From: a virus
Taxonomy: Duplodnaviria; Caudoviricetes
Virus record (IMG/VR): IMGVR_UViG_3300005611_000001
DNA: 64,000 nucleotides
Direction: 5' to 3' (one strand)
Part shown: positions 17,770 to 57,985 of the stretch, one piece after another
How positions within the stretch are numbered: position 1 is the first letter of the stretch
How the letters are laid out: every line of letters begins with the position of its first letter
Translations under genes and position numbers: made by a program
The notes under the pieces: generated by a model
Seen by the model: only the letters and a program-made list of their open reading frames with translations
Told to the model about the DNA's origin: nothing
Database searches by the model: none

Positions 17770-20700
17770 TATGCTGCTCCATACGGGCTAAGAATACCGC
17801 CGGGTCGTTTTTGTCTTTGAAGCTCTTCTTGAACTGCAAGAGAAATAACTTTGCCCAGGTTTCCAGCCTGTTGATTATCCATCTGAGTTTGTGAAGTGCC
17901 GTTTCCTTGATTGTCTACAGCTACATTAACGGTAACGTTATTTATGCCATTAGCACCAGAAGGCATAGAAACAGGAATAGATCTGCCGTCAGGAAGAGGA
18001 ACTACTGCTTCATTATGGCGACCTTCGCCCACAAGGAAAGTCGGCTCCTTTACGATACCGCCAGAGGCATACCCACGAGGCATAACTCCGCCCCGAGCAA
18101 GACCAAAGAAACCCCCCACCATTCCTAATACACCGGAACCTCCACCTCCGAAGATACCACCAAGTAGATCACTAAAAAGAGTACCAAACCCTTTGAGGCC
18201 GTTAGCGAACACGCCTCCCAAAGATTTCAAGAAAGGAGCATCTCCACTAAAAAGGTTGCTTAGGCTGTTAAGAAAAGGACCAAAAACACCGCCCATTCTT
18301 CCTGTGGTAGTTTGAGTATCGTTACCTTCTGAAACAGAAACTTGGCCTTGTGCACCAAACAAATACCTCTTCATGCTAAACCCAGACCCTTCTGTATTTA
18401 AATCCCCTATGGCTTTTGTTGCTTCAGGAGGCAGAGAACTTTGTGTAGGAGAAACTGGGGTCGTTTTGCCCATTGCTCTTGCAGCTACAGAACCAAAATA
18501 ATTTGCGCCGTCTACCATTGCATTTCTTATTTTTTCAGCAGGATCTTCCTTTTTGCCAAACATAAACTCACTAATTCTTGTAGTAAACTGTTTCGCAAGG
18601 CTATCTGCCACGGAGTTAAGCGTTGCTTCAGCAATATTCAAAACAAGAGTCTTAATATTTGTTTCTTGTCCTTTAATCAGTTGCTGTAAAGCAGTATTCA
18701 TAGACCCTTCAAATGCTTGAATAGCATTATCCCGCATTTGAATAAGCTCGTTGTTTTGTTGCCTTAAAATATCAAGTCTTTTTTCGTCAAGAGCTATTTC
18801 TCTTTCTAGAGCTTGAACTGTTCTTTCTGCATTCTCCACAGACAAAGGATCATTTTTATCTACAGATGCCATGGCAGCCCGAATCTGTAGCCGCTTTTGA
18901 TCAATTGCTAACGAGATTTCTTGTTCACGAAGTAATGCGCTCTGTCTTTGAGCGGCCATAGTTACTTGGCTTTCCAGACCGAGCTTTTTCAATGTTAAAG
19001 AATTTTGTCTATCTAATAGAGCAATCTCGTCGTCTCTAAGCTGTTGAAATTCTGTAGCAGTTGCGCGAGCAAGAGCCAAACTTCTAGCTGCTAATGCATA
19101 CTCTTTTAGCTTTTGCTCATAGTATTTATCATTCGCATTTAATTGGCTAGCTAGCACAGCCAGGTCTTTGGCGCGTGCCTTCGCTAATTTTTCATTTAAG
19201 TTTAGTACTGTTTGTATAGGTGTCGCATTAAATTGACTGTTTAAAGCATCCCTTGCTCTGGTTTCTTGCTGAATAAGTTCTTTAATTTCTGAACTTCTAG
19301 CAGCTTGCTCGGCATAAGTATCTACAAGCCTTCTTAAACTAGCAAGCTGCTCGTCAGTTACTCCAGTATTAATATCAATAGAATTAGCTAAATCCAAGAC
19401 TCCCGGAACTACTTGACCAACAGTATTTAAATAATCTTTTAATCCTTGATTAGCATCTTTGGCTTCTTGGCTAAGACCAACTACGGTTGTAACTGCCCCG
19501 GCTCCGGAGCCTCTTCCTGCCCTACCCCTTAATTTTGTATTAGTTTTCATAACTTCTTCGGGTAGTTGCCGAATAATAGCAATCTGATCTTCTAAAGTTT
19601 GTAGACTAATAGAGTTTGCTGCGTTTCCAATAAACTCGAGTTCTTCTCTTAGAGTACGAAAAGGTACTTCCTCAATACGACGACCCATTTTCTCAAAATC
19701 ATCTGCCGAACCTTGGAGAGCCTGACTGTTAGCTTCTGCGGCCTCTTTTAATTTTTCGTATTCTTCGTTAAACAGCCCAAGTTTTTTTCTTGCTACGTCA
19801 AATATTGCGGTAAGGAGTTCCCAAGCTACAATAGCGATACCAATAACACCTGCCATCCTAGATAAAGCTCGTGCTGCTCTGAGGGCACCGACCTTAAACT
19901 TTTCAACTGCTATACCTGCTTTCTGGAATCTAAGTTTTGTTTTTTCTACTTTTAAACCTAAAATATCTATAGACGTGCCTAACTTTTCCGTTGCTTTAGA
20001 ATTTCTATCTAAAGTCTCAGAAATTCCTACAATACCTCTGTCTAGGTTTTGCATTCTTTTATCCAAAAACTGGCTTTCGTCAGCTAGGTCTGTAACACTC
20101 GGAATAACGGAGCTAAGAATAGAAGAAGCAAAAAGACCGAAAGAAGCAGCCGCAGCAAAAACATTTTTAGTAAGCACATCAGCTATAAAGTTAGCTGGCC
20201 CTACGAGCGCAGTACCTATCTGACGAGCTACAGCTTCTAAAGACACAGCTAGCTTATTCATGGAGTTTCCTACAGGGTCCATGATAGCATTAATTTTTCC
20301 ATATCTTTCTTCTACCTGACGAAGAACGTCATTGGTTACAGCTTGAGTTCTTTGGTATGCAGTTAAATCATTTCTACCTACATTTAGAGCGCGAGCATAT
20401 TCGCGAGTTGCATCCTCCAGGCGAAGAATAATACCCAATTCGTCAAGTAGTTCCGGCTCTGCTTTGGTAACACCACGAATAAGACGATTGAAAGAATCTG
20501 TCAGGTCTCTACCGAGAGTTCTAGAAACTGTGAGAGCAGCGGAGCCGAGCTCTTTAAGTTGATCACCTGATAAGCCTGCCGCCAAAGAAATAGCAGTAGC
20601 TCTAGAGGCTTCTGTAAAAGTAATTTGATTATCGGTGGCTGCCTGTAGGCTTTTAGCCAGGGATTGATATGCGATACCCGTAGCCATTGTAAGAGCTTCT

Positions 20701-21011
20701 TGACCTTGCAATAATTGTAAATAGTCTGCGGACTCTCTTAAAAATGCAAAGGCGGCCTGGGCGGCAAAAAGATTAGCAGCAAGAGTTGCATAAGCAGGTA
20801 CAAGCCCGCTGGTAATTCCCTGGGCTTGTTTAGCAAAGTTTTTAGAAGAATTAGAGGAAGCCTTAGCTGTGCCCTTTAGTCGACGGTCAGCAGTTTGTGC
20901 GTTACTACTAACCCCACCCAGGGCCTTTCCTGCTGCTTGGGCTTCTTTGGTTACTAGCTTTAGGCTACCGTTATCATCGACAACAATACCAAGCTCAATT
21001 GTATTTGCCAT
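17769..21011 (-). CDS. Tape measure protein
   Basis: 1080 aa, helical and Ala-rich; RLIRGVTKAEPELLDELGI; C-terminal ASGGIV..PT.LVGEG..NEAVVPLPDGRSIPV. Confidence 0.9.
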   Translation of the reverse strand: MANTIELGIVVDDNGSLKLVTKEAQAAGKALGGVSSNAQTADRRLKGTAKASSNSSKNFAKQAQGITSGLVPAYATLAANLFAAQAAFAFLRESADYLQLLQGQEALTMATGIAYQSLAKSLQAATDNQITFTEASRATAISLAAGLSGDQLKELGSAALTVSRTLGRDLTDSFNRLIRGVTKAEPELLDELGIILRLEDATREYARALNVGRNDLTAYQRTQAVTNDVLRQVEERYGKINAIMDPVGNSMNKLAVSLEAVARQIGTALVGPANFIADVLTKNVFAAAASFGLFASSILSSVIPSVTDLADESQFLDKRMQNLDRGIVGISETLDRNSKATEKLGTSIDILGLKVEKTKLRFQKAGIAVEKFKVGALRAARALSRMAGVIGIAIVAWELLTAIFDVARKKLGLFNEEYEKLKEAAEANSQALQGSADDFEKMGRRIEEVPFRTLREELEFIGNAANSISLQTLEDQIAIIRQLPEEVMKTNTKLRGRAGRGSGAGAVTTVVGLSQEAKDANQGLKDYLNTVGQVVPGVLDLANSIDINTGVTDEQLASLRRLVDTYAEQAARSSEIKELIQQETRARDALNSQFNATPIQTVLNLNEKLAKARAKDLAVLASQLNANDKYYEQKLKEYALAARSLALARATATEFQQLRDDEIALLDRQNSLTLKKLGLESQVTMAAQRQSALLREQEISLAIDQKRLQIRAAMASVDKNDPLSVENAERTVQALEREIALDEKRLDILRQQNNELIQMRDNAIQAFEGSMNTALQQLIKGQETNIKTLVLNIAEATLNSVADSLAKQFTTRISEFMFGKKEDPAEKIRNAMVDGANYFGSVAARAMGKTTPVSPTQSSLPPEATKAIGDLNTEGSGFSMKRYLFGAQGQVSVSEGNDTQTTTGRMGGVFGPFLNSLSNLFSGDAPFLKSLGGVFANGLKGFGTLFSDLLGGIFGGGGSGVLGMVGGFFGLARGGVMPRGYASGGIVKEPTFLVGEGRHNEAVVPLPDGRSIPVSMPSGANGINNVTVNVAVDNQGNGTSQTQMDNQQAGNLGKVISLAVQEELQRQKRPGGILSPYGAA

Positions 21012-21927: not shown

Positions 21928-23040
21928 TTAGTAAGCTGTACCAGTGTATGTGATTGTTGCTTCGTCAGTTTCGCTAATATTGCTGGGAAGAGCATGGAAA
22001 TTAGCTTCAACAGAGATAACGTCATCAATTGAGTGTGTAGGAACTTCCAAGTGGCACTGAGGAAGAGCAATTGCTACTTTCGGAGCTGCCGAACCACCAA
22101 CGCTAAAAGTAAGATTAAACGAGTTCGTGATAGTAGAAGTAGCTTCGATAATATCTTCAAATAGGTCGGCACTGGAGTTTGTGTCCGCATTCAAATAGCA
22201 AGTAAAGTTACCAGAAATCGCACGAGTACCTGTAACGTGTCCAAGAGGCTGGTTCACAACACCAAGAGTCTCGGGCGTAAGAAACGTAATGTTGTTCTCG
22301 AAGGTAATGTTTCCGCCTGTCAGAACCAAATCATAACTAACGGAGGTACCACTCAAAGAGGAAGTAGCCACCAAGGAGGTCAAACGATTACGAATAAAGT
22401 TGCTAGTGGAAGTCAGGGCTTCTGTAATTGTTGCAGTCGGAGCGGTATCTTCAGTAATAATCTTACCAAAACCAGACCAGTTAATTGTAGCAATCCCATC
22501 AATATCGAAATCAATAGAGGCAGAGTTCGCTACACAGCCTTCTATTTTATAGGTAGTTTTGGTTCCGCTTCCAGCACCACCCATAACAAAGAAAAGATCA
22601 AAAGTGCCAAGAGTAACAGCATTAGAGCTATCAAAGTCAAAGGCAAGGCTAGAAGTGCCAAGAGTAACGCCATTGGTCCACGCAGAATCTCCCGAAGAAG
22701 GAGGAGTCCAGGCATTAACGGCAACAAAATTTGCCCAAAGCGCTTCTTCAACGCAGTGATGATTTGCATTTGTATCTTCCCACTGGCCCGCTGACGTGCT
22801 GGAAATGAACGGACGCATATATGTCGAAAAAGACCATTCTGCCGGAGCATAAGAGTCTGTAAACATCTGACGAGCACGACGACTGACGCCGGAGGCGTCC
22901 GACATTTCGTTCAGAGTAATTTCGGAAGCATTAGTTGCTTGCGAAAAGCTAAAACCATCAAGCACAGGGATTTCCCAAACATTGGAACCTTGCTTGAGGT
23001 AGACTTTAGTATCGCGACTAAAGTACAATGTATCGGCCAT
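21928..23040 (-). CDS. Major tail protein (T5 pb6-like)
   Basis: LYFSRDTKVY, EIPVLDGFSFSQATNASEITLNE, FTDSYAPAEWSFSTY.RP; position in the tail operon. Confidence 0.8.
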   Translation of the reverse strand: MADTLYFSRDTKVYLKQGSNVWEIPVLDGFSFSQATNASEITLNEMSDASGVSRRARQMFTDSYAPAEWSFSTYMRPFISSTSAGQWEDTNANHHCVEEALWANFVAVNAWTPPSSGDSAWTNGVTLGTSSLAFDFDSSNAVTLGTFDLFFVMGGAGSGTKTTYKIEGCVANSASIDFDIDGIATINWSGFGKIITEDTAPTATITEALTSTSNFIRNRLTSLVATSSLSGTSVSYDLVLTGGNITFENNITFLTPETLGVVNQPLGHVTGTRAISGNFTCYLNADTNSSADLFEDIIEATSTITNSFNLTFSVGGSAAPKVAIALPQCHLEVPTHSIDDVISVEANFHALPSNISETDEATITYTGTAY

Positions 23041-25586: not shown

Positions 25587-27617
25587 TTAGTTAGCTGCGT
25601 ATTTCCAAGCCCACTTGGAGGTAGCGCTGTCGATGATATCGACGAAGCCAATGCGCTGAGAAGCAACCAGAACGCGGCGCTGATTCGCCACTTCGTAGTC
25701 TGCTTCCACCGTCACACCGCGAAGACGCGGAATAACGAAGTTGCGGGGGTTAACTGCAACAGCAGCGAACTTACCAGCAGCCTTAGCAGCAAACTCGTCG
25801 ACGAGAAGCACACGGCTACCGAACACCTGACCGATTTCACCAGTCAGTTTCGTTGCCATGTCACCAACAAGGTTGGCATCTTGGAATTCTGCGTCTTCGA
25901 GCAGGTTGTAGTAAGCGTCCTGAGACACGAGGTAGATGACTTCCTCGGGACGTACACCGTACTTACCCATGTTCTTACGCATTGCAAGAAGGTCAGCAGC
26001 CGTGAGAGCGTCCGTAGCTGCATAAGTGCCGCCAGAACCGCCACCAACGTCAGTAGTCGTGTCGGAGTCAGCAGCAGCAAGAGCAACGAGACCGTTGAAT
26101 GCAGCACCGCCGGTACCGAATGCGCCATCAGCGTGGTTGCCCACGAGAAGTGCGTTTTCAATCGCACGAGCGTGCGAACGGACCATCGACTCACGAATCA
26201 GGGGCAGAATGGGCAGAATTGCATCCTCTTCCGTCTCGTTGCCGAGATAGGACTGAGAAATGAGCTTCTTGACGGTGAGCGTACGCTCCGTCATGGTCAC
26301 ACCACCAAACGGAGAACCGTAGGTGTCGCCGCGAGTTGCGAGGTTGCCATTGGGAGCAGAACCTGCGGCGGTTTGTGCGGAAGCGAACTCAGCATAGCCT
26401 GCATCGGGAAGAATCGGAAGAATCATCGAAGCAGAGGTCATCTGAATTTCACGGAACAAGGGAGCCATCACAAGAGCGTTCTGAATGTCACGCTCGATGT
26501 TGGTGGACACAACTTGCTCGAAGTCAGCACTGGAAACCTGCACACCGGAGTGAGCATTCACTTTTTCCATCACGTTTTGAGCACGAGAGGTATTCCAGCC
26601 TTTGCCAGTTGCAAGACCGAGAACATAGCTGTCCACGATATCGCCTTCAAAGGTCTTCTGCCACTCGCCGTTGCCACGGTCAGCAAACACACGCTTGGAC
26701 TCGCGCATCTTCTCGATTTCACCAGCCTTCTCTTTGAGTTCGCCCTGAAGACCTTCAATGGTCTTTTCGAGGTCGCCCTTTTGCTCTTCAAAACGCTTTT
26801 CGATGTCTTGAACGAGTTTGGTAGCGTTGGACTCGACCGAGACGCGAACACGCTCTTCAAACTGCTTTTCTTCAGCCTCTAGGCGAGCAGCCTGCTCTTC
26901 AGCAGCCTTACGTTCAGCGGCCAGTTGCTCACTTACAGCCTTAGCAGCTTCAGCAGCGGCGGCCTTGGTGATAGCATCAAGATCGATGCTCTTTTCATTA
27001 TCCATGGTTTTCTCCTGTACTGTCGTTTCTTCAACGACTTTTGCCGTATCCCCAGCTGAATCTTGAGCTTTTGCTGAATCTTCAGCTAGGTGCTCGGCCG
27101 GTTCAACGCGTTTAAATTGATTGATAAAGTCTTTGTATTCATTCTCAGAATCAAAAGACTTTGCTAAAGAAAAGGTTGCAGCCTGATTTGCAGGAACGGA
27201 TACAACCGATACCTCAAACAGTTCCGCATCCTTAATGCGATATCCGTCAGTTTCCGCCATATAATCAGCATCCTTTACACGGAAACCAACGGAAAAAGCT
27301 CCGAGGATGCCTTCTTTCACCATATCTCGAATTGCACCAGCAGATTTCGAGATTTTAGCTTGAAGTTCTAGACCTTGTGGTGTAGCTTTCACACCGGTCG
27401 CACGACCAATAGGCTTATTGTAATCGTGATTAAAAAGAATAATCGGGTTATTATGAAAATTATCGAGGCCACCTTTCGTCCAAGCATCTACATCAATGAT
27501 GTCGCCGACACGGTCACGGTCCGCTGTGCTTGCAAAGCCACGAATTTCTACGGAACCGTCATCGCCTTCGCCGAGTGCCTTAAAGGTCGACCCCAGATGG
27601 AAAATTTTATTCTTCAT
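25587..27617 (-). CDS. HK97-type prohead protease fused in frame to the major capsid protein (internal MCP start at 27005)
   Basis: IRGFAST...DRVGDII, LFNHDYNKPIG, FSVGFRV, ELFEVSVVSVPANQAATF, then coiled-coil delta domain and HK97 fold; no stop between; AGGAG-N7-ATG at 27005. Confidence 0.9.
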   Translation of the reverse strand: MKNKIFHLGSTFKALGEGDDGSVEIRGFASTADRDRVGDIIDVDAWTKGGLDNFHNNPIILFNHDYNKPIGRATGVKATPQGLELQAKISKSAGAIRDMVKEGILGAFSVGFRVKDADYMAETDGYRIKDAELFEVSVVSVPANQAATFSLAKSFDSENEYKDFINQFKRVEPAEHLAEDSAKAQDSAGDTAKVVEETTVQEKTMDNEKSIDLDAITKAAAAEAAKAVSEQLAAERKAAEEQAARLEAEEKQFEERVRVSVESNATKLVQDIEKRFEEQKGDLEKTIEGLQGELKEKAGEIEKMRESKRVFADRGNGEWQKTFEGDIVDSYVLGLATGKGWNTSRAQNVMEKVNAHSGVQVSSADFEQVVSTNIERDIQNALVMAPLFREIQMTSASMILPILPDAGYAEFASAQTAAGSAPNGNLATRGDTYGSPFGGVTMTERTLTVKKLISQSYLGNETEEDAILPILPLIRESMVRSHARAIENALLVGNHADGAFGTGGAAFNGLVALAAADSDTTTDVGGGSGGTYAATDALTAADLLAMRKNMGKYGVRPEEVIYLVSQDAYYNLLEDAEFQDANLVGDMATKLTGEIGQVFGSRVLLVDEFAAKAAGKFAAVAVNPRNFVIPRLRGVTVEADYEVANQRRVLVASQRIGFVDIIDSATSKWAWKYAAN

Positions 27618-27942
27618 CTTTGCTCACCGGCTTGGGCGAGGGTTTCGCCACTGTTCTAGTAGGAGCGGGCTTCAGAGCTGGTTTCGGCTCGGGCTTGGGC
27701 GGCTCAGGCTTCGGCGGCTCGGAAGCGGGCTCCGGCTCTTGCATAATTTTTGCATAAATGTCGGGATGGCTGGCCTTAATAATGGAATCAAGACGTGACC
27801 AAACTGGAACATAGCGACGAAGAATAGCAAAACGAATTGGCGCCTCTTCATCCTTTGCATACTCATTGCGCGTCAGAATACGGCCTTTTTCGGCAAAATA
27901 TTCTGCAACTTGCTTAATGATTACACCTTTTCTACTTTTCAT
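27607..27942 (-). CDS. Hypothetical protein with a Pro/Lys-rich tail
   Basis: 111 aa; PEPPKPEP repeats; coupled between portal and protease. Confidence 0.5.
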   Translation of the reverse strand: MKSRKGVIIKQVAEYFAEKGRILTRNEYAKDEEAPIRFAILRRYVPVWSRLDSIIKASHPDIYAKIMQEPEPASEPPKPEPPKPEPKPALKPAPTRTVAKPSPKPVSKDEE

Positions 27943-29144
27943 ACATTGGTATCCTCTTGTGGCGGTCTGCCCCCTAACTCAGGATTGACAGCACTGCCGG
28001 CAATGTTTGCAGGAACACGAAGATCATCGTATCCCTCCATTGGTTCTTTTCCGAGCTTCACTCTTGCCTCGTTCGGCGTGAGAATTCCAGCATTTACAAG
28101 TGTTTGATAGTAAGCCGCTTGGTCACGAAGCTCGGGCTGTAGTGCTGGAATACTTGTTACATCTTCGCGGAGCTGGAATCCGAAGAAACGCTCAAACGCG
28201 TAGTTTATTTTCCGAACGATTGGAAGAATCGTTTCGAGGTAATATAGTCGATGATTCGGGCGAATATTTGCATTATTGCCACCATCCAGGAGGATCGGCG
28301 GAATCCCAAGAGCTTTGAGAATAACTTTTTCATTGTCCTCGATAGAACTCTGAAAGTCTAGATCCTTAAAGTTTACCTCAGTAATCGAATCTACTTCCAG
28401 CCCGCCATCAAGAATCATGGGACGGCGACCACCATTATCAGGACGGTAACGCACATTCCAACTTTGAATCATGCGCTCCTTAATCTTTTCACTAAGAGTA
28501 TTCGGTGTTTTGAGAACGAGTCCAGGAACTGCACCATTTTTAAAGAAGTTATCCTGAAACTTTCTCATCGACACCATTAGCTGCATGGTGCGATAGGCAG
28601 GGCGAAGCCGAGAGACCCCACGATAAATAGAGTAAAAAGAATTTTCCTTAACATGAATAATCTCTTGGGGAGAGTAATCTATGCTGGCATCAAATTCAAA
28701 ACGCTCAATATAAGTACGAGTGTCAGAATAGATTCTCATCTTCTCCGCTGGGAGGTGATAAAGATGAGCCCCGTCGAAATATACAAAAATGTTACCATCA
28801 ATTAGATAGTCAATGACGAGGTTACGCTTAAAAGCACTAATGTCCTGAAACGGATTCGGCTCGACATTGAGAAGTCTGCGAACGGTTTCAGCCCGTACAT
28901 TTTTTACAATCGGAGTAACATTTCTGTTCATTTCGCCGACCGCAGTCGGAATTTCAGCCGTATCGTCTACAATCATATTGACGCCACGGTTTACAACCTC
29001 TAAACTTTCGTATTGCCTACGATAGTTATCCGGAATTTCCCGAGTATCAATCGTAATGCCTTCATCACGAGAAATGACAAACTGGGCAGGATTCAGCTTC
29101 TCTTCGTCTACCTTTTTGTCCTGCCAGAAGTTATACCATGCCAT
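27939..29144 (-). CDS. Portal protein (HK97 family)
   Basis: DYLIDGNIFVY, FFKNGAVPGLVL, ILDGGLE, ALGIPPILL, GILTPNEAR. Confidence 0.95.
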   Translation of the reverse strand: MAWYNFWQDKKVDEEKLNPAQFVISRDEGITIDTREIPDNYRRQYESLEVVNRGVNMIVDDTAEIPTAVGEMNRNVTPIVKNVRAETVRRLLNVEPNPFQDISAFKRNLVIDYLIDGNIFVYFDGAHLYHLPAEKMRIYSDTRTYIERFEFDASIDYSPQEIIHVKENSFYSIYRGVSRLRPAYRTMQLMVSMRKFQDNFFKNGAVPGLVLKTPNTLSEKIKERMIQSWNVRYRPDNGGRRPMILDGGLEVDSITEVNFKDLDFQSSIEDNEKVILKALGIPPILLDGGNNANIRPNHRLYYLETILPIVRKINYAFERFFGFQLREDVTSIPALQPELRDQAAYYQTLVNAGILTPNEARVKLGKEPMEGYDDLRVPANIAGSAVNPELGGRPPQEDTNV

Positions 29145-30189: not shown

Positions 30190-31488
30190 TCAGAAACCTG
30201 TTTGACTAGTTTCAAATGAGTAAAGAGCATAACGAAGCGCATCCGCAATGTGCGAGCTTTCATCATGTTTTGGTTTTTCGGTTTGCAGTCCTGGTCGATC
30301 ATCCCAGCGATACTGGTCGATGGATCTAAGGGTTTCTTTACACTCTTGGTGAATGACGAGCCGATCATTGTCAATAATAGAGGAGACATGCCCAATTCCA
30401 TCAATCACGGATTTCTTCGCATTTGTACAGCTAATATCGTAATTCTGAGCAAAGTCGAACTTCGTTTGCTGCGCTGCGGAGTCAATAAAAACAAAGTCTA
30501 CCTGATATTTGTCTAGAATTTCTCGAATATACTGAGCGTGCTGCTCTGTTGTGCGCTCAGCATGGTAATATTCTTCGAGAAGATAAAACTTTTCGGAATC
30601 CCAGTCGTACGCTATAACCACCAAGGCGGTAGGATCACGAAAGCCGACGTCGAGCCCAGCGATAATATCCATTCTCGATGTATCCAACTCAGAAAGGTTT
30701 TGGACGCAATCTTGAAAGTTGAAACTCCAGATTTGACCTTCATAAACATTAAAGTCTGCCATATATTCTTGAGCGAATTCAGCTTCACTCATTGTTCGTC
30801 TCGCCTCGTCAATGTCTGTTTGAGAAATACGAGGATTGTCTAAATAAGTTGCTTTGATTGATACCCATTCGGGGAATTCATCGGAAAAACCACGATAAAA
30901 GAATTCAGAAAACCAATTGTTTCTACCTCGAGGAGTAGAAATAAAGATCGCTTTTGAGTTATCTTTGTCCAGCGTTGGTCTGAGAGCCACATTAAATGCA
31001 TCTCTTCCATTTGCGAGGGCGGCTTCGTCAAAAATAATCAGATCATAGCTTCTACCCACGCTGGAATCGACCTGATTAATGGATCCCATTCTTACGGTCG
31101 AGCCATTTGTAAGCTCAATAACTTTGTCTTTTGCGTTGTCTCGTGCTACTTCTAGGTCAAAGTGCTTAATGAGGTTTCGCTGCAAATCAAAAGAGATCTG
31201 AGACAGCGAGTAGTTTGGAGACATGATAAGAATGTGGCAATTTGGAATCAACGAAATGAGTTGTCCAATGATATTAGCGATATAAGTCTTTCCTTGGCGT
31301 CGAGACAAAGCCGCACACACAAATCTATACTTTGGCGAATTGATTGCATTGATAAGAGCCACCTGAGAGGGAATAGGCTCAATGCCAAGAAGCTCAAGAT
31401 AGCCTTCGATTGGTAGTTTAATGAACCTACGAGGATCCTCGCTTTCCACAATGTGGTCAATAATTACATCTTTTCTGCTGACTTCCAT
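30190..31488 (-). CDS. terL: Terminase large subunit
   Basis: Walker A SRRQGKT, Walker B LIIFDEAA, FISTPRG, nuclease AGLDVGFRDPT, SHIADALRYA. Confidence 0.95.
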   Translation of the reverse strand: MEVSRKDVIIDHIVESEDPRRFIKLPIEGYLELLGIEPIPSQVALINAINSPKYRFVCAALSRRQGKTYIANIIGQLISLIPNCHILIMSPNYSLSQISFDLQRNLIKHFDLEVARDNAKDKVIELTNGSTVRMGSINQVDSSVGRSYDLIIFDEAALANGRDAFNVALRPTLDKDNSKAIFISTPRGRNNWFSEFFYRGFSDEFPEWVSIKATYLDNPRISQTDIDEARRTMSEAEFAQEYMADFNVYEGQIWSFNFQDCVQNLSELDTSRMDIIAGLDVGFRDPTALVVIAYDWDSEKFYLLEEYYHAERTTEQHAQYIREILDKYQVDFVFIDSAAQQTKFDFAQNYDISCTNAKKSVIDGIGHVSSIIDNDRLVIHQECKETLRSIDQYRWDDRPGLQTEKPKHDESSHIADALRYALYSFETSQTGF

Positions 31489-36450: not shown

Positions 36451-36654
36451 TCATTGTTTCACCAGTATTTCGAGTTGTGCATGAACTCTAGCAACATCGA
36501 CTTGAAGCTGGTTTACTTTTTCAAGCATTACTTCTTGCTTGTTGAGAGCTTCTTCATGAGCCTCTACTTTTTCGGAAAGTGCAGAAGCCCACCAAATTAC
36601 AGCAGCAAACTCAAGAGTAAAGCCCAGAAGTAGGCTAAGACTTAGTTTCTCCAT
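36451..36654 (-). CDS. Small membrane-anchored coiled-coil protein
   Basis: N-terminal TM (..AAVIWWASAL) followed by a coiled coil. Confidence 0.55.
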   Translation of the reverse strand: MEKLSLSLLLGFTLEFAAVIWWASALSEKVEAHEEALNKQEVMLEKVNQLQVDVARVHAQLEILVKQ

Positions 36655-36661
36655 GAAGTAA

Positions 36662-37297
36662 TTACCCTACAACAAACTTGTTGCTCTTAGCCAAATTTTC
36701 CTTGGCGGGAAGGTATTGTAAGTTACTCAAAACATGAAGACCGCTCACTAGAGGGTTCTGTAGCGGAACGATGTGGTCTACATGGTGTCCCTTCGGGCAG
36801 TTAGCGTAAAAGAGACGTATTTGTTCTTCTTGAGAAGGAATCACCATTCTATTCAACAAGATTGCTTTTCTTTTTGACGCATGGTGTTTTGATACTTCTG
36901 GATGTCTTTTATAGTACTTTTTTGACCTTTCATTGTCGCACTTAGAGCACCAAATACTAAGACCGTTAGACGTAGAGCTCCAGTTACCGAAAGCGTTGTT
37001 TTCTTTGTATTTATTACAGCTTCCACAATATTTGAAATCGCTCAAGTCTAAAAAATAAGTTTTCCAGCTTTTTCCTTTTTCTTTGTTTGCATCGGGGAAA
37101 GTTTTGTTAGTTATTCTTGAAACTGTGTCTTTATTAACATACAGCTTTTTTGATATACTTTCAATATCCCCTTCGTTTAAGTACAAAGAAACTAACTCGT
37201 ATAAAGTGACTTCGGGGCTCTTTCCGCGTTTTCTTTTTACAACCTCTTTTCCAGAACGGCTTAGACAGGTTAAAATATTATTTATTACTTGATTCAT
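36662..37297 (-). mobile_element. HNH homing endonuclease
   Basis: [27 protein letters not shown]...[23 protein letters not shown]. Confidence 0.85.
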
Positions 37298-37733
37298 CTA
37301 TACCACCCAGCAATTTTGTCATAAGTTTGCCGTAGTTGCCTTGCCCAAATGGAGTTTCATTTATCTGGACATTTGTCTGATTTTTAATCGTTGTTTGCTG
37401 TTGCTGAGCCTTTAGCTCATCCATTCTCATCTTGTGCGCAAGTTGAATGAGGTCCACAAGGTCTTTGCTGGTATACATATCCGATTCTTGCGCTTCTTCA
37501 AACTTTTTCTCAATAATCTCATCCAGAAGGCTACCTAAACGAAAACGATTGCGATAGCCTAGGTCAAGATAAACTTGATCAATATAAGAACGCACTTCTC
37601 GACGATCAAGAATCTCAGCAGCCTTATCTGGAGAGATCGCCAGAGAGGACGCCGCCTCTTTTAGCGATCCAAACGACAGATAAGCGTTGGCCAGCTCGAG
37701 ACCTTCTGGAGAGATCGTCGGGAGTTTATTCAT
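37278..37733 (-). CDS. terS: Terminase small subunit (T5-like)
   Basis: [55 protein letters not shown]...GNYGKLM.KLL. Confidence 0.8.
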
Positions 37734-38041
37734 TACCAGGGCAGACCTGTTGCAGTCTTGGGAGCTTTTTGCTCTTCGATTTGTGCGGCGAGAGAGGTCT
37801 CTGTTGCTTCTTTGTCAATGGTCTGGAAGCACCAGTCGAGAACATCACTTTCAGTAAGGCTTTCAAAAGCAACAAAGCCATCAGCATCTGCATCGGGAGT
37901 GAATCCACAGGTACCGTAGGAAGAAGCATAAAACTTATCTTCGCCTACAGTTTCTGTTGCGTCTACACGCCAATGGGCTACGGTGACTCCACCGTCTGCG
38001 GTATTTCTTTCAAGCTGAGCGATGCTCCAGGTAACTTCCAT
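37733..38041 (-). CDS. Acidic protein of the type usually found next to tail-fibre genes
   Basis: MEVTWSIAQLER...VAHWRV...F..LTE.DVLDW...GLPW; own promoter TTGACC-17-TACAAT at 38086-38114. Confidence 0.55.
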   Translation of the reverse strand: MEVTWSIAQLERNTADGGVTVAHWRVDATETVGEDKFYASSYGTCGFTPDADADGFVAFESLTESDVLDWCFQTIDKEATETSLAAQIEEQKAPKTATGLPW

Positions 38042-38142
38042 TTCTTATCTCCAAAAAATCGAATTAAAATTCGGTTATGTTGTATATTGTAATCTGTTGT
38101 GTGGCCTAGGTCAAGTGATATTTTTTAGAACCTTCGGCCGAA

Positions 38143-38340
38143 CTATAATACTTTTGCTCTTGCCCACGCATTACACTGATGAATGGCAGATACTCTTATC
38201 ATTGGTGAGGGAACAGCACGATTGCTAAAAGAATTCATGCACTGTTCCCGTAAATGACGAACTTGAGCGAGTTGTGCTTCTTCCACTATTGAAGTCGAAG
38301 CACACCCGCCGAGAAGAAATATAATTAAATACTTAGCCAT
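38143..38340 (-). CDS. Secreted operon ORF7: small lipoprotein
   Basis: MAKYLIIFLLGGC lipobox; two further Cys. Confidence 0.6.
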   Translation of the reverse strand: MAKYLIIFLLGGCASTSIVEEAQLAQVRHLREQCMNSFSNRAVPSPMIRVSAIHQCNAWARAKVL

Positions 38341-38872
38341 CTGACAAAGGATTATCCAGCGCTTTTTGTAGGGTATCTCTTAAATCTTCGTCTAGCTTTT
38401 GCATCTTCATATCAATACGATCTTCTACTTCTCGCATTGTATTTCTAACATCTTTTTCTGACTCTCGAGAAAGGTCAGATACTTGTCGTAGTCGAGAATC
38501 AATCTCGTCTTGTACATCTTTCATTCGCTTGCTTGTATCTTCTGTCACTCTTTCTACTCGAAGAATGTCGTCTCTGAGACTATTCTTAATATCTCTTGTA
38601 TAATCAATTGCATCATCAAGTTTACGCTCAATTGCAACATTGCGAGCTTCTACAGCTTCGATGTCAAGTACCTCTAGCTTTTCTGCCATTTCCTGAAAAG
38701 CCTTATAGGACTCGAAACCTGCGTAAAGTGTTCCTAGCAGAGAGCCAAGAAGTGCAAATGCTGCTCCAATCGTGGTAGGCGTCATCGAAATACCTGCCAC
38801 TGTAAATTTTGTGTTTTTGAGATTTTCAATCTCTTCTTCGACTTTCTCTACTCCGTCCCCCAGATCAGCCAT
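38333..38872 (-). CDS. Secreted operon ORF6: single-TM coiled-coil protein
   Basis: TM IGAAFALLGSLLGTLYAGF followed by long heptads. Confidence 0.65.
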   Translation of the reverse strand: MADLGDGVEKVEEEIENLKNTKFTVAGISMTPTTIGAAFALLGSLLGTLYAGFESYKAFQEMAEKLEVLDIEAVEARNVAIERKLDDAIDYTRDIKNSLRDDILRVERVTEDTSKRMKDVQDEIDSRLRQVSDLSRESEKDVRNTMREVEDRIDMKMQKLDEDLRDTLQKALDNPLSDG

Positions 38873-38874
38873 AT

Positions 38875-39282
38875 TTAGTTCTCAAACTTGAGGTTATTGA
38901 GGGCGTTTATTTCCGCTCTCAACTTCTGCACCTCCAATCGTCGTCTTTCCAGCTCTAACTGGTAAAGAGTATTACAATTTAATCTCTCTGCGGGTGCTCC
39001 AATCGGTATCGTTATCTTGCCGTACACACCCACATCTTTCATCTGGTCATTTGTAATTACAGGATCCACAAAAGTGTTTCCAAGTTGATTTCCCTGATTA
39101 ATAATACCCACTACTCCAAACTCAACATTCGTCGCGGACCCAATGGCACTAGAGCAATCTAAGTCGCCCGCTCGAAATCTATCTGTTTGAAAACTTTGCT
39201 GAGTCTGAGGAATTGCAAGGTTCAAAGAACTTGTCTGTGCAAATACGCTCAAAGGTAGCAAAAAAAGTATTAATCTTTTCAT
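38875..39282 (-). CDS. Secreted operon ORF5: exported protein with a Cys pair and C-terminal coiled coil
   Basis: Signal peptide MKRLILFLLPLSVFA/Q (ATGA overlap); DLDCSS...RLNCN.LYQLELE. Confidence 0.65.
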   Translation of the reverse strand: MKRLILFLLPLSVFAQTSSLNLAIPQTQQSFQTDRFRAGDLDCSSAIGSATNVEFGVVGIINQGNQLGNTFVDPVITNDQMKDVGVYGKITIPIGAPAERLNCNTLYQLELERRRLEVQKLRAEINALNNLKFEN

Positions 39283-39716
39283 TTTACCTTGGAACAAATT
39301 TTAGAAGAAATTACAGTACCTTTTACCCCGCGCAGAATCTTGGACATTGAGCAAATATACATTACACGCGTCGAGTCAATCTCTCTTATATAAATGTCAA
39401 TCTTACGTCGACCTAGATGCGGTATTTTTACAATTCGTTCTGCTGTTGCAAAAGGTACTGGAAGCCAGTCTGCGTCATAAACATCAAACTGGTAGTATTC
39501 AATCTCTCGTCGACTGTTAAACAGCTCCATACGAGTTTGCAGTATGCCCGGCATGTAAGAGGGCAAAAGCTGCGGATAGGTAGGAGTAAACTGATGTGCG
39601 CTAGCACTCGATGCGATTAAAGCGCAACACACTCCGCATTTACCACGGAGGTATATTCGCCTCCAGGAAACGCCTTGTCCGCACCATAGTCTGCTTGTGA
39701 ACTTACTCCAAACCAT
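39279..39716 (-). CDS. Secreted operon ORF4: exported, pilus-chaperone-like beta protein (start probably GTG 39632)
   Basis: ALIASSASA/HQFTPTYP...MELFNSRREIEYY...YICSMSK...SSKICSK. Confidence 0.55.
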   Translation of the reverse strand: MVWSKFTSRLWCGQGVSWRRIYLRGKCGVCCALIASSASAHQFTPTYPQLLPSYMPGILQTRMELFNSRREIEYYQFDVYDADWLPVPFATAERIVKIPHLGRRKIDIYIREIDSTRVMYICSMSKILRGVKGTVISSKICSKVK

Positions 39717-40108
39717 ACTGTACCTGCTACTGTGAGATCAAATTCTGACACATTGTTGTATGTACGCTTATTCGTGTCATAGTCCGCCTGAAGAGGATCT
39801 GTAACTTCTGCAACGCTCACCGACCCCGTCCAGTTTACAACGTCACTCAACGCGGGGCTGGAAGAAAACACTTCGGGTGTGGAAATCACAGCCTTGTAGA
39901 AGTTCGCACTGATTACATCAAACCGAATCACCGGCTCCACACCTCCGTCTGCCGCAGCAGTGCTCAAGCGACTCGGAGTCGGGTTGCCATACACGCCGGG
40001 AGTATCTGTTACAATTACACACTTGGAAGCAACCGTTCCCATAATGGGGGTGTCTTCCGCTAGCACAGGCCCCGCCAAGAAAGCGATTGCCAAAGCCAAC
40101 TTTTTCAT
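39617..40108 (-). CDS. Secreted operon ORF3: exported fimbrial-subunit-like protein
   Basis: Signal peptide MKKLALAIAFLAGPVLA; I.GTVASKC near the N-terminus; C-terminal FPGGEYTSVVNAEC strand. Confidence 0.55.
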   Translation of the reverse strand: MKKLALAIAFLAGPVLAEDTPIMGTVASKCVIVTDTPGVYGNPTPSRLSTAAADGGVEPVIRFDVISANFYKAVISTPEVFSSSPALSDVVNWTGSVSVAEVTDPLQADYDTNKRTYNNVSEFDLTVAGTVWFGVSSQADYGADKAFPGGEYTSVVNAECVAL

Positions 40109-40891
40109 TTATTTCTCCTCATACTGTGCGTTTACCATTTCATCATGTAAACGCTGTTGGGCAAAGTTCATTCTACGTCCTTGCCTATTATCAGAAATGT
40201 CCTTCCCAGGAAGAAAAGAGTCTTGTATTGATCCACCCGGCATCGCAACGTAGTAGCTCGCTGGAACAATATCGAGTGCAAAAAATTGTGCTGCAAGCTC
40301 CGCTTGAGCAACGGCGTTCGACCCCGCTTCTCTTGTTCTTTCTTTTACCTGCATCTGGCGGCGCTCGAGATCCTCTTGATTCTGATCTCGTAGAGCGTCC
40401 AGAGTATACTCAACCGAAGGAATCTCTACCGAAGGCGCTGGAGGAATATAGTTAGGACATCCAAGAGTCGGCTCAGCGCAGGAATCGTACTGATAGGTAT
40501 AGACGATGTTTTCGTTGAATACAGTTCCCTGGCCTTGTAGGCTCAAAGCACCAGCACCCATAGTCTCCCCTAAAATATTCAGAGGTGCGCCTCTTGTAAT
40601 TGTGTTGCCTGGCAATCCATTCCAGTTATCTGTGAAAGTAAATAGTCGAGAACCGGCTACTGAGTTCTGCTCAATATTGACTTGAAAATCGTCTGCGGGG
40701 TTTTTGCTCACGGCATAACGCCAGGCGATTCCATTTACGACAAGTCCTGTCTCTGGAGGAAGCACATTCTGCATATTCCAGGTTCGGCCGAGCGCGACGA
40801 CATTCGGCGTACTCTCGAAAACCTCAGATTGCGAGTAGCAGTGCGAGGAGGCTAGCAATGCCAATACCACCAAATGCAGTCTTCTTACCAT
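40109..40891 (-). CDS. Secreted operon ORF2: exported protein
   Basis: Signal-like N-terminus; YDSCAEPTLGCP; C-terminal LHDEMVNAQY. Confidence 0.6.
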   Translation of the reverse strand: MVRRLHLVVLALLASSHCYSQSEVFESTPNVVALGRTWNMQNVLPPETGLVVNGIAWRYAVSKNPADDFQVNIEQNSVAGSRLFTFTDNWNGLPGNTITRGAPLNILGETMGAGALSLQGQGTVFNENIVYTYQYDSCAEPTLGCPNYIPPAPSVEIPSVEYTLDALRDQNQEDLERRQMQVKERTREAGSNAVAQAELAAQFFALDIVPASYYVAMPGGSIQDSFLPGKDISDNRQGRRMNFAQQRLHDEMVNAQYEEK

Positions 40892-41330
40892 TTGAAATTT
40901 CCTTCTCCGGCTGCTCTTCTTCGTGTGCGAGCCATGCAGCTTTTGCCTCTGGACCGATTAGCCCATCGTAGGGGCAGGGTGTCCCGGCATTCATCATGGC
41001 GTCGAACACACGCTTATCCTGGCACATCGTAGAGACGGCGGCAACTTTCATACCCATATCATAGAGCGTCTTTGCGTTCTTGAGGCGCTCGCAGTTCATG
41101 TCTCGTACAGTTGCGCCTGCACTGAGACCAAGAATTTGTGTCTGGACTGCGCCTGCCACTCCGACTGTGCAAAGATCCGAATTACTGAAGTTCATTGTCG
41201 GAATGATTGCGGACGGAGGCGGACTCTCTACGGTTGTCCGAACTGTACTATCTGTTGTGGCCTCCGTCACGATGGGCGCTTCTTGTGCGAGAGCGGTAAT
41301 CGGAAGAAGAAGTAAAATTAGTTTTTTCAT
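40824..41330 (-). CDS. Secreted operon ORF1: exported Cys-rich protein with a C-terminal membrane anchor
   Basis: MKKLILLLLPITALA/Q; SPPPSAI.P, DLCTVG, NCERLK, MCQD, GTPCP; hydrophobic C-terminus. Confidence 0.7.
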   Translation of the reverse strand: MKKLILLLLPITALAQEAPIVTEATTDSTVRTTVESPPPSAIIPTMNFSNSDLCTVGVAGAVQTQILGLSAGATVRDMNCERLKNAKTLYDMGMKVAAVSTMCQDKRVFDAMMNAGTPCPYDGLIGPEAKAAWLAHEEEQPEKEISNGKKTAFGGIGIASLLALLLAI

Positions 41331-41364
41331 AATTTGTTTTGGGGGTGGTCCTATCATGTATCAA

Positions 41365-41393
41365 ATTATAAGGGGTTGTGGGGCGGTTGTCAA
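41365..41393 (-). promoter_or_regulatory. sigma70-type promoter of the secreted operon
   Basis: TTGACA-17-TATAAT. Confidence 0.85.
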
Positions 41394-41491
41394 GGATTGT
41401 TTTTGCTTGGGTTCGGTTTTGTAGGCTATAGCGCCTTTTTGGAAGAAGAATTTCTTGCGTGTTACACGTGTGGGTGTGTGGCGAGCAACTA

Positions 41492-41510
41492 AATGAGAAT
41501 GAGTCTCATT
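41492..41510. promoter_or_regulatory. Fur-box-like 9-1-9 inverted repeat
   Basis: AATGAGAAT-G-AGTCTCATT (one mismatch from a perfect palindrome). Confidence 0.5.
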
Positions 41511-41820
41511 ACCGCCCCCCGTTATAATATATAACTAGCCCCCGTTATATATTATAACGGGGGCGCGTTATTACTTGCGGTAATCACGCCTTATATATGT
41601 AACTAGATGCCCTTTATAATAATAAGAACGCCATGCTACAACGGGCGACTTATAATAATAAGCGTTAGTTATTAGGCGCATTATTTTCTCCAAATAATCG
41701 GATCAGTTATAATTGCGTAAACAAGCGCGCCTAGGGGGATTAAAACCATAATAGCCATAATAATATAAAGCATATTTAAACCCTGTTATAAGGCGCCTTA
41801 TAAGGCGCCTTTATTATATA
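41511..41820. repeat. AT-rich palindrome cluster; candidate genome end or packaging-related site
   Basis: GCCCCCGTTATA-TAT-TATAACGGGGGC (41538-41564) with an upstream copy of the left arm; tandem TAAGGCGCCTT palindromes at about 41787-41812. Confidence 0.55.
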
Positions 41821-42418
41821 GAAACTGCGCAATAGGTAATTCATAATCACGCGCATCTTCCAAAGCTGTATGCGGCTCCGCTTCTAATTGTTCGCCTATA
41901 ATATAGCGCGCTACATTGTCGGCGGTCATTTTAGGCTTACCCGTTTTAGTTAACGCATTATTAGCATGGCAATATTTAATATAATTCGCGTCATTACTAA
42001 AATAAGCGCGAGCCTTTTGAAGCAAACAAAAACGCTTTCTGAATAATCCTAAATTAATATCTGTCGCCATACACTTTGGATAATCAAAAGAGATATTAAA
42101 TGCGGTGACTGCCGGATTATAGCGCCCCACATTTTTAGATAACCAAATATTAATTAAATGATTAGATGCAATAGAACGCGAACCGGATTCAATGCGTGAC
42201 ATATAATGTTTACGGCGTGCCCTAACATTTTGAATTGACCAAAACTCGCCAGGCTTAGAATGGGGATTGGACCATAATTCCATTTTATCAAACTGATTAT
42301 ATATAAGCGTTCCAATTTCATCTAATACTTCACCGGAATTTAAATCGGCAATTACTGCTCCGAAATCGGCAACAGTATTCCCCGAGGTTGTTTCCGTATC
42401 CACTAAACAGATAATCAT
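41798..42418 (-). CDS. DEDDh-type 3'-5' exonuclease
   Basis: VDTETT, FNISFD, HTALEDA. Confidence 0.75.
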   Translation of the reverse strand: MIICLVDTETTSGNTVADFGAVIADLNSGEVLDEIGTLIYNQFDKMELWSNPHSKPGEFWSIQNVRARRKHYMSRIESGSRSIASNHLINIWLSKNVGRYNPAVTAFNISFDYPKCMATDINLGLFRKRFCLLQKARAYFSNDANYIKYCHANNALTKTGKPKMTADNVARYIIGEQLEAEPHTALEDARDYELPIAQFLYNKGAL

Positions 42419-42858
42419 TTTAAAGCCTCATTTATTAAGGTTGCATCTAGGGCGTTGATGCCCAACTCTCGGGCCATTGCTAGAACCGAGTGATTGTCAT
42501 CATAGAACGTAACGCCGCGCAGGTCCACTCCCAAGGAAAGCAGTTTTTCTCGCTTCAATTCTGCATCCGAACGATTGTCCCCTTCACTGCGCGCCAGAAT
42601 TACTGGCGCTTCTAGGCCATGCTTGCGAAGGTATGCCCTGTCAGCATCACCTAAAACTCGAGCGGTACATATTGCCACCTGCTTATCCGTGGCGAGAGCA
42701 TGGCGCATGAGGCGAGCCAGGGGAAGCAGCGAATCCTGCTCAATTTTTTCCGGCGTGGAATGTTCGCGCCATGCGTCTAGGTCCAGGGAACCATCGGGGC
42801 ACGCCAGCTGGCGATGGCGAGAGCAAACCACGGTCCCATCTAAATCAAAAATAAGCAT
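42415..42858 (-). CDS. dmp: HAD phosphatase, T5 Dmp-like (deoxynucleoside 5'-monophosphatase)
   Basis: Start MLIFDLDGTVVCSRHR (TAATG overlap); DGSLDL, QDSLLPL..LMR, ICTAR, FYDDN. Confidence 0.75.
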   Translation of the reverse strand: MLIFDLDGTVVCSRHRQLACPDGSLDLDAWREHSTPEKIEQDSLLPLARLMRHALATDKQVAICTARVLGDADRAYLRKHGLEAPVILARSEGDNRSDAELKREKLLSLGVDLRGVTFYDDNHSVLAMARELGINALDATLINEALK

Positions 42859-57364: not shown

Positions 57365-57985
57365 ATGATTACAAAAACCAAGTTTCTTTTTATTCTTGTA
57401 GCCATGTATTGTTTTCTCACATGGGCAATAGAACCTAGTGACGGTAAAGTAAATCAACTTCACCCGATGATTCAAAGCCCGACAAAGAGTATTCCTCTGG
57501 AGCAGCCGCTTTCTCCTCCTCTCTCTTCAAGCAAAGCTGCTCCAGAGGAACCTATCTACGAAGAGCGCGAGATCGAATGCCTCGCGCTCAATTCTTATTT
57601 TGAAGCCCGCAATCAATCCCTTGCGGGCCAAATCGCAGTGGCTCAGGTAGTGCTGAATCGTGTACGCAGCAAAGACTATCCCGACACCATCTGTGAAGTG
57701 ATACAGCAAGGTCCTACCTACGAAAACTGGAAAGGCAACATTCTTCCAGTTCGCAATCAGTGTCACTTTTCTTGGTGGTGTGACGGCAAAAGTGACATAC
57801 CGCAAGACGAAGAAACATATCAAAACATTTTAAATCTTGTAACTCAAATTATACAAGACAAGCCTATTGACATTACAGAAGGAAGTCTGTATTATCATGC
57901 AGACTATGTAAAACCTTTCTGGGCACCTACATTAAAAAGAACACTTGTAATCGATAATCATATTTTTTATAAAAACATTCTGTGA
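57365..57985 (+). CDS. Cell-wall hydrolase (SleB/Hydrolase_2) with an N-terminal TM
   Basis: CLALNSYFEARNQ...AVAQVVLNRV...QCHFSWWCDGKSD...YYHADYV.P.W...IDNHIFY. Confidence 0.9.
   Translation: MITKTKFLFILVAMYCFLTWAIEPSDGKVNQLHPMIQSPTKSIPLEQPLSPPLSSSKAAPEEPIYEEREIECLALNSYFEARNQSLAGQIAVAQVVLNRVRSKDYPDTICEVIQQGPTYENWKGNILPVRNQCHFSWWCDGKSDIPQDEETYQNILNLVTQIIQDKPIDITEGSLYYHADYVKPFWAPTLKRTLVIDNHIFYKNIL

Follow-up and report, generated by a model that had tools for sequence, protein, structure and literature searches.

A conserved phage cassette of predicted exported proteins with a pilin-like subunit and a chaperone-like partner

What would a tailed phage of the ocean do with a set of exported proteins, two of which resemble the subunit and the chaperone of a bacterial pilus? 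The question is raised by a seven-gene operon at positions 38143 to 41393 of a 64,000-nucleotide stretch of viral DNA (IMG/VR record IMGVR_UViG_3300005611_000001), which is part of a marine siphovirus with a T5-like layout; the whole stretch is called the window here. The open reading frames (ORFs) of the operon, O1 to O7, include a pilin-like protein, O3, and a small chaperone-like protein, O4, and the first six of them recur as a cassette in many other phages. Literature searches found no description of this module. It is present in cultured SAR11 and Roseobacter phages, yet its members are annotated as hypothetical.

The operon and its pilin-like and chaperone-like members

The seven ORFs run in the same direction on the minus strand and are packed without real gaps behind a predicted sigma70-type promoter (41365..41393, minus strand). 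With the hexamers TTGACA and TATAAT 17 nucleotides apart, this promoter matches the consensus at 12 of 12 positions and is the best site in 37500-42000. The next promoter-like site (TTGACC, 17 nucleotides, TACAAT; 38086..38114, minus strand) matches at 10 of 12 positions; it lies after O7 and ahead of a phrog_7802 gene and terS, and marks the end of the operon. The junctions are tight throughout: O2 and O3 abut, O4 and O5 share an ATGA, O5 and O6 are 2 nucleotides apart, O6 and O7 overlap by 8, and the signal peptide of O4 overlaps the 3' end of O3. O1 and O2 overlap by 68 nucleotides. An out-of-frame overlap of 62-86 nucleotides between these two genes is kept in 73 of 73 loci measured, which means that one DNA stretch codes for two hydrophobic segments. 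In the window (40824-40891), the codons of the C-terminal anchor of O1 also encode, in another frame, the start and signal peptide of O2.

Hydropathy places N-terminal hydrophobic cores in O1, O2, O3, O5, and O7, and one in O4 just ahead of the histidine that begins the mature protein. A second hydrophobic segment in O1 forms a C-terminal anchor, and O6 has a single internal transmembrane (TM) segment at about residues 35-53. Combined with cleavage-site patterns, in which small residues stand at -1 and -3, hydropathy points to signal peptides on O1-O5, and export signals of this kind are found in nearly all homologues of the module proteins. The mature proteins carry four cysteines in O1, two in each of O2, O3, O4, and O5, none in O6, and two in O7 beyond the lipid-bearing one. 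That the operon proteins are targeted for export is thus supported at the level of sequence. The first-pass annotation of this DNA had described a consensus sigma70 promoter driving seven packed ORFs, each with a signal peptide, lipobox, or membrane anchor and most with paired cysteines, and had singled out a C-terminal anchor in O1, a TM coiled coil in O6, and a lipoprotein in O7. The ORF map, the hydropathy profiles, and the LLGGC lipobox of O7 bear out this description, the cysteine counts being even once the lipid cysteine of O7 is set aside.

O3 (39617-40108) appears to be an exported pilin-like beta-sandwich subunit. PIMGTVASKC lies near the N terminus of the mature protein and GGEYTSVVNAEC at the C terminus, both conserved in its family (alignment A1), so the motifs that had suggested a fimbrial subunit at first sight, I.GTV..KC and a C-terminal G.Y...V..EC, are real and kept. 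In the conserved N-terminal extension, I5, G7, and V9 are nearly or fully invariant and precede an invariant C13, and the conserved C-terminal strand holds G133, Y135, A141, and C143. An AlphaFold2 model gives a beta-sandwich with a predicted local distance difference test (pLDDT) score of 93.6, in which residues 1-12 have no secondary structure and residues 1-10 average a pLDDT of 74.

The family to which this sandwich belongs is less clear. The top Foldseek matches in the PDB are CfaB, FimG/FimF, the PapG pilin domain, and CsuA/B, all weak (E 2e-3 and above). Clusters of DUF4402 (2e-4), SCPU, and type 1 fimbrial proteins lead the matches in the AlphaFold DB, and an SCPU cluster is found among the language-model neighbours at 0.95. 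By VIA Z (at most 7.7), the fold is a generic one. A tblastn search of O3 against phage records gave no match. A profile search found 117 representatives of the O3 family among 1.84 billion, and its distant full-length members carry no Pfam family, so there is no sequence bridge to SCPU or DUF4402. On this mixed evidence, O3 is pilin-like but lies outside the known pilin families, the DUF4402 and SCPU pilins being its nearest relatives only weakly. The earlier view of O3 as a fimbrial subunit therefore keeps its pilin-like sandwich and its conserved N-terminal extension, but the matches are weak and no known pilin family can be named.

O4 (39279-39716; start codon uncertain, mature protein from 39596) looks like an exported, single-domain, PapD-like "half chaperone." The mature protein has 105 residues, forms one domain, and contains two invariant cysteines. 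Its first residue, His1 (39594-39596), stands right after the signal-peptide cleavage site and is invariant in 55 of 55 homologues. In its modelled structure, O4 is a PapD-fold domain, like domain 1 of a chaperone of the chaperone-usher type with its donor G1 strand. By sequence, 0 of 51 O4 homologues matched PapD_N or PapD_C (PF00345/PF02753) at E 0.1 or better. The small immunoglobulin-like periplasmic chaperone proposed in the first-pass annotation is therefore right as to fold, but it has one domain where real chaperones have two.

Modelled as a complex, O3 and O4 reach an ipSAE of 0.69, while the best of three controls scores 0.00; the same mark is attained by 58 of 80 solved complexes and by 2 of 110 pairs that were mismatched. 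Between runs, at least 91% of contacts coincide, with partner pLDDT at or above 87. In this model, residues 96-102 of O4 pair in parallel with residues 138-145 of O3 and antiparallel with residues 13-17. The last strand of O4 is thereby predicted to lie between the first and last strands of O3, which is the geometry of donor-strand complementation. Residues 1-7, R29, and Y80 of O4 lie near the O3 C terminus, with His1 in the predicted interface, and the part taken by the first strand of the chaperone recalls the Caf1M-type chaperones. Residues 1-10 of O3 stay outside the interface, as expected of a free donor strand. Structure search and complex modelling, which had been proposed as checks, have in this way yielded pilin-like and chaperone-like folds docked by strand complementation, if only as models. 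We consider it likely that O3 and O4 are a real pair of the chaperone-subunit type within an envelope assembly.

The comparison with chaperone-usher pili (PapD-PapK, FimC-FimA/FimH, Caf1M-Caf1, CfaA-CfaB, and CsuC-CsuA/B) shows how far the likeness goes. Like their subunits, O3 is an exported sandwich, of about 146 residues, with a phi-x-G-x-phi pattern before the first cysteine and a G-x-Y...C-terminal strand, and the last strand of the putative chaperone is predicted to run parallel to the last strand of the subunit. Unlike these systems, the module has no usher, and O4 has one domain (105 residues in the mature protein) instead of two. By sequence, O3 and O4 reach none of PapD_N, SCPU, DUF4402, or Fimbrial. 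The cysteine pair of O3 joins the region of the first and last strands, whereas the pair in classical pilins joins strands A and B. The genes of O3 and O4 also belong to lytic phages and stand with four others whose products fit no known family. As for the usher, a beta-barrel of about 800 residues (PF00577), none of O1-O7 is long enough or has a matching Pfam hit, and the 69 complete modules found elsewhere are compact, with no extra large gene inside. The earlier remark that no usher is visible thus extends to the module at large.

A six-gene cassette and its three-gene form

A scan of IMG/VR returned at least 599 relatives, and 80 loci were fetched and compared. With the help of profile searches, O1-O6 were all found, in the same order, in 69 fetched viral or metagenome-assembled genome (MAG) loci, on T5-like and unrelated backbones. 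This constancy indicates that the arrangement is not due to chance. The flanks vary: terS follows the module in one group, as it does here, and elsewhere there is no further likeness to the window. The differing flanks mark the module as a mobile cassette and not a feature of the T5 backbone. The block conservation that the first-pass annotation had expected is there, but the conserved unit has six genes, O7 being confined to one lineage. The tie that it had drawn to the position of T5 pb5 and llp does not survive, because the module is a cassette found in many phage backbones, often beside lysis genes. Immunoglobulin- or pilin-like folds, a block of genes that is conserved, and proteins predicted to go to the envelope instead of being cytoplasmic virion components were what the follow-up found.

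O1 (40824-41330, with an alternative upstream ATG at 41357) combines a signal peptide, a Thr/Ser-rich stretch, a conserved four-cysteine domain, and the C-terminal membrane anchor. Its alignment (A4) has 43 invariant columns, the four cysteines among them, and it matches phrog_20531 at 6.6e-13. Relatives about 50% identical are encoded by the Pelagibacter phages HTVC115P, HTVC202P, HTVC023P, Mosig, HTVC033P, and Baldr, and weaker ones by the Roseobacter phages CRP-207 and CRP-810 and the Ralstonia phage RSP15. In a set of 5.8 billion proteins, the O1 profile has at least 8000 relatives and O5 has 5463; none of either family is named or carries a Pfam domain. An O1 search of 185,579 species-representative genomes gave 26 matching loci. 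Every one lies on a MAG contig, and many of these contigs are short and bear an implausible taxon label. The labels of these contigs (L084-L109) include Melainabacteria, Bifidobacterium, Bacteroides, Methanobacteriota, and Trichodesmium, among others. They are almost certainly phage contigs misbinned into species-representative genomes. Among those 185,579 genomes, the module was found in no isolate, occurring on viral and MAG contigs only.

The remaining members are equally devoid of family names. O2 (40109-40891) consists of a signal peptide, a beta-rich N-terminal domain, one C-x6-C-P-N-Y motif, an acidic linker, and a conserved C-terminal domain; its alignment (A5) shows a variable head and a conserved tail. 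Its language-model neighbours include FlhE at 0.81, which is a lead only. O5 (38875-39282) has a signal peptide, a conserved N-terminal SSLNL.LP, a loop closed by Cys43 and Cys103 in which two conserved amphipathic strands flank a variable tip (alignment A6), and a C-terminal coiled coil; it matches phrog_37374 at 8.8e-6. O6 (38333-38872) has an N-terminal membrane anchor and a periplasmic coiled coil of variable length that ends in an invariant D-N-P-L motif (alignment A7), and its relative in HTVC115P is gp49 (7e-20). This topology, an N-terminal TM segment followed by a periplasmic coiled coil, is like that of an i-spanin, the resemblance being one of topology. Pfam searches with O1-O7 gave nothing at or above the family cut-off, and those with the O3, O4, and O5 homologue sets gave scattered subthreshold matches with no consistent family. 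Profile searches of the PDB with O1-O4 found no match. Profile-profile comparisons of O2 with O3, O5 with O1, and O5 with O3 aligned the signal peptides only, which indicates that the module members are not paralogues.

O7 (38143-38340) stands apart. It encodes a lipoprotein of 65 residues with the lipobox LLGGC and two more cysteines, and no homologue was found in 83 loci. In the closest relative, L004, small basic proteins stand in its place, and in T5-like relatives terS comes directly after O6. With no relatives at any locus and its absence from L004, O7 is a lineage-specific addition. It could be an exclusion factor like Llp or Cor, or a local partner of O6. Like the receptor-blocking lipoproteins Llp of T5 and Cor of T1 and phi80, it is small and has extra cysteines. 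A further likeness is its place in a T5-like genome, close to where the late region ends and next to pre-early-type genes. It differs in having no PHROG match and in lying outside the conserved module.

The cassette comes in two forms. In the six-gene form, O2 is short (median 290 residues) and has one C-x(6-8)-C-P-G-Y motif. The three-gene form, seen in 9-11 fetched loci and in pelagiphages, consists of O1, a long O2, and O6. Its O2 proteins have 415-853 residues, varied heads, and long linkers of the Ser/Thr or acidic kind; a C..NPL...CPGY motif is repeated in tandem up to 13 times, while their C-terminal 60 residues are as in the short O2. Such long O2 proteins occur where O3-O5 are absent. 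O1, O2, and O6 are common to both forms and can be regarded as the core, with O3-O5 accompanying the short O2. Long O2 proteins with 3-13 motif copies (counted by regular expression) lie, for example, at L097:10579-12720, L098:9117-11225, L078:8368-10728, and L075:8449-9705; the heads in L097 and L098 look nidogen-like by eye, and no family name was found for the C..NPL...CPGY repeat.

Possible roles in the infected cell

Our tentative preference, to which we give rather less than an even chance, is that O1-O6 form a conserved, phage-specific exported cassette that assembles in the envelope of the infected cell and acts at the outer-membrane step of lysis. O1, by its C-terminal anchor, and O6, by its N-terminal anchor and coiled coil, would be inner-membrane proteins facing the periplasm. 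O2 is secreted and modular, its head varying and its tail conserved. O4 would clasp O3 by its last strand and keep it competent for assembly, leaving available the free N-terminal stretch of O3, with its alternating hydrophobic residues around a glycine. Strand exchange could then link O3, with no usher involved, to other proteins of the module or to further copies of O3. This would yield a structure anchored in the inner membrane and reaching the outer membrane, its distal part made of O2, plus O3-O5 where O2 is short. That O3-O5 accompany a short O2 and are missing where O2 is long and rich in repeats fits a role of O3-O5 in extending or replacing the distal part of O2. This structure would take the place of spanins and carry out the outer-membrane step of lysis or release. 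The lysis role is placed first because of the endolysin, holin, and lipase genes found nearby, the i-spanin-like topology of O6, and the wide spread of the module over phage types.

The neighbours were surveyed in 78 loci by clustering the ORFs within 3 kb of the module and naming their representatives by Pfam. The most frequent is a protein with an EF-hand and a TM segment (27 loci, mostly just after O6), followed by terS (16 loci), a tail-fibre assembly chaperone (11 loci, upstream), a GH19-like enzyme with PG_binding_1 (10 loci), Hydrolase_2 (8 loci), GTA_holin_3TM (6 loci, plus 4 similar), and Lipase_3 (6 loci). Of the 61 loci with enough flank, 18 have a recognised endolysin or holin no more than 3 kb away. 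In HTVC023P, an O6-type gene directly precedes a peptidase M15 gene; it was judged by eye from its TM segment, coiled coil, and C-terminal NPL, and gave no BLAST match. In CRP-810, an O1-like gene annotated as an OmpA family protein follows the tail fibre gene and stands two genes before the lysozyme gene. The usual home of the cassette is the border of the tail-fibre and lysis genes, and in T5-like genomes, which have their lysis genes in another place, it lies before terS.

Two of these neighbours deserve separate mention. The EF-hand protein (L067:8040-8477 and relatives in 27 loci) has subthreshold Pfam matches and, by eye, TM-like segments, and it may be a holin-like or regulatory membrane protein. 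The gene for a class 3 lipase (Lipase_3, 3.7e-20) adjoins O6 in six loci, for example at L091:7561-8307, L067:6627-7382, and L073:9473-10204; speculatively, its product is a lysis enzyme that degrades outer-membrane lipids.

With the two-component spanins, of which lambda Rz/Rz1 is the example, the module shares the topology of O6 and a frequent place beside endolysin or holin genes, and in this window a lipoprotein gene, O7, overlaps the end of O6. It differs in that the conserved module includes no lipoprotein partner and no PHROG spanin match, and in that it comprises three to six proteins instead of two, a chaperone-subunit pair among them. Searches of the PHROG spanin families with O6 and O7 gave no match.

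Several points weigh against the lysis role or the assembly that would carry it out. No lysis gene adjoins the module in the window, whose endolysin candidate lies 16 kb off at 57365-57985, and in all 14 T5-like contexts the 3 kb around the module are free of recognised endolysins and holins. In a T5-like phage, a promoter with the full consensus would point to early expression. No outer-membrane anchor or pore was identified in the module; O5 may be a candidate for an outer-membrane or oligomeric element, but this is a guess. We know of no precedent for a pilin-chaperone pair in lysis. The swapped, adhesin-like heads of O2 (NIDO-like or like carbohydrate-binding modules) suit a surface protein equally well. 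No module member has a sequence link to Pfam or the PDB, and the O3-O4 score of 0.69 may reflect the model's memory of solved chaperone-subunit complexes, speaking then for likeness and not for binding.

The swapped heads lead to the strongest competitor of the lysis role, a surface fibre, adhesin, or exclusion system, which is possible but in our view doubtful. Here, O3 would form a thin fibre by donor-strand exchange and O2 would be a head-and-stalk adhesin on the infected cell, serving to mask receptors, to block superinfection, or to attach infected cells to their neighbours or to particles; the way out across the outer membrane would be O5 or a host pore. The predicted pilin-chaperone pair and the conserved N-terminal extension of O3 suit a fibre, and O2 is built like a fibrillar adhesin, with a variable head, a stalk of Cys motifs, a Ser/Thr or acidic linker, and a conserved tail. 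O5, too, carries its variable loop between conserved amphipathic strands. The operon in the window has a strong promoter of its own, ends with the lipoprotein O7, and lies where T5 keeps its receptor-binding and receptor-blocking genes. Against a fibre, there is no usher or recognised outer-membrane channel in the module. The second chaperone domain, a participant in usher docking in known systems, is missing from O4. The core form in pelagiphages dispenses with O3-O5 altogether, and the very wide spread of the module and its frequent lysis neighbours suit a basic infection step better than an accessory trait.

A precedent for phage-borne fibres does exist. Pelagiphages carry a complete curli (type VIII secretion system) fibre system, whose suspected effect is aggregation or exclusion (Wittmers et al. 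2022, PMC9599517). Its genes, CsgG, CsgF, and CsgA/B, are recognisable by sequence and come from Alphaproteobacteria (PMC9599517). The present module resembles this system in being a multigene, exported, fibre-type set of abundant marine phages that moves as a block between phage families. Unlike the curli genes, it has no match to the Csg families: Pfam searches gave none for O1-O7 at E 1 or better, nor any among the O5 or O4 homologues. It was also found in no isolate bacterial genome among the species representatives searched.

Common to a lysis role and a fibre is the thought of an envelope machine that works without an usher: partners anchored in the inner membrane would receive a pilin-like subunit from a one-domain chaperone, and the resulting structure, spanning the periplasm or lying at the surface, would either open the outer membrane in place of spanins or display a fibre. 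We regard this as an idea with the odds against it. If it is true, donor-strand exchange has been recruited outside the chaperone-usher pathway and is used by abundant ocean phages, including those of SAR11 and Roseobacter. What is new here would be chaperone-subunit chemistry without an usher in a phage cassette, and the whole machine stands a fair chance of being of a new kind. A role in lysis would account for the breach of the outer membrane by many marine phages in which no spanins can be recognised, and a third class would join the known outer-membrane disruptors. A fibre would be the second phage-borne fibre system beside curli and would show that assembly by strand exchange can work without an usher. 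The O1 family has thousands of members in marine metagenomes, and the phages of SAR11 and Roseobacter are among the most abundant virus-host systems of the ocean. Either way, O3 and O4, with 146 and 105 residues, offer a small and tractable pair for the study of minimal chaperone-subunit chemistry.

A more conventional account takes O6 and O7 as an ordinary two-component spanin in this phage and O1-O5 as unrelated neighbours. It draws on the N-terminal TM segment and periplasmic coiled coil of O6 and on O7, a 65-residue lipoprotein whose gene begins before O6 has ended. No other good lipoprotein candidate was found in the window (a strict regular-expression scan returned one doubtful ORF, and its hydropathy cut-off excluded O7 itself), and no other spanin-like pair was seen near the endolysin candidate. 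We nevertheless think this account improbable. O6 always occurs with O1 and O2 and never with a lipoprotein: lipoprotein ORFs after or inside O6 relatives came to 1 of 65 and 4 of 80, all spurious-looking. Its invariant DNPL motif implies a partner conserved in all forms, which O7 is not. Neither protein matches a PHROG spanin, and O6 has no cysteine.

The invariant His1 of O4 invites another thought, namely that O4, as a small beta-sandwich with a histidine right after the cleavage site in every homologue, holds a copper site of the CopC or histidine-brace type and that the operon is an auxiliary metabolic set for metal or nutrient handling. The fold matches of O4 are chaperone-usher chaperones and MSP domains, however, and neither CopC nor lytic polysaccharide monooxygenases are among the top matches listed. 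There is no second conserved histidine, and His1 falls in the predicted O3 interface. A copper protein was accordingly considered for His1 and found unsupported by the fold matches, and a metal-handling role is very unlikely. Least probable of all, to the point of being scarcely credible, is that these are cytoplasmic virion or assembly proteins whose hydrophobic N termini are not signal peptides: the module does lie at the edge of the structural gene block and follows tail-fibre and tail-fibre-chaperone genes in other phages, but canonical signal peptides, small residues at -1 and -3 included, are found in five proteins in a row, and conserved cysteine pairs and two further membrane-anchored proteins recur across dozens of homologues.

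Setting of the operon in the window

From position 1 to about 37.7 kb, the minus strand of the window encodes tail, head, and packaging genes. They include the genes for a central fibre (8967-14444), the tape measure (17769-21011), the major tail protein (21928-23040), a fused protease/capsid (25587-27617), and the portal (27939-29144), as well as terL (30190-31488). The terS gene (37278-37733; phrog_3802, 7e-36) is directly followed downstream by an HNH/endonuclease VII-like gene (36662-37297; phrog_1035, 1.9e-17), all of these on the minus strand. Past 41.8 kb come an exonuclease-like gene, a phosphatase or kinase-like gene, and small genes of the pre-early type. A blastn search of 37000-42500 against phage records gave no match. 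The public sequencing runs that contain DNA of the window are marine metagenomes only, each with small shares, and no RNA run is among the matches listed.

Two further genes of the window encode proteins with possible links to lysis. A protein of 67 residues at 36451-36654 (minus strand) has one TM segment and a coiled coil and is possibly a small lysis or membrane regulator; it shares this build with small proteins that follow O6-like and O2-like genes in HTVC115P (gp48 and gp52) and in L081. The endolysin candidate at 57365-57985, on the plus strand, belongs to phrog_938 and has a hydrophobic N terminus of the signal or signal-anchor-release type. It is a homologue of the Hydrolase_2 proteins counted among the neighbours of the module; its homologue in L062 matches Pfam Hydrolase_2, and in other phage backbones such homologues lie within a few kilobases of the module.

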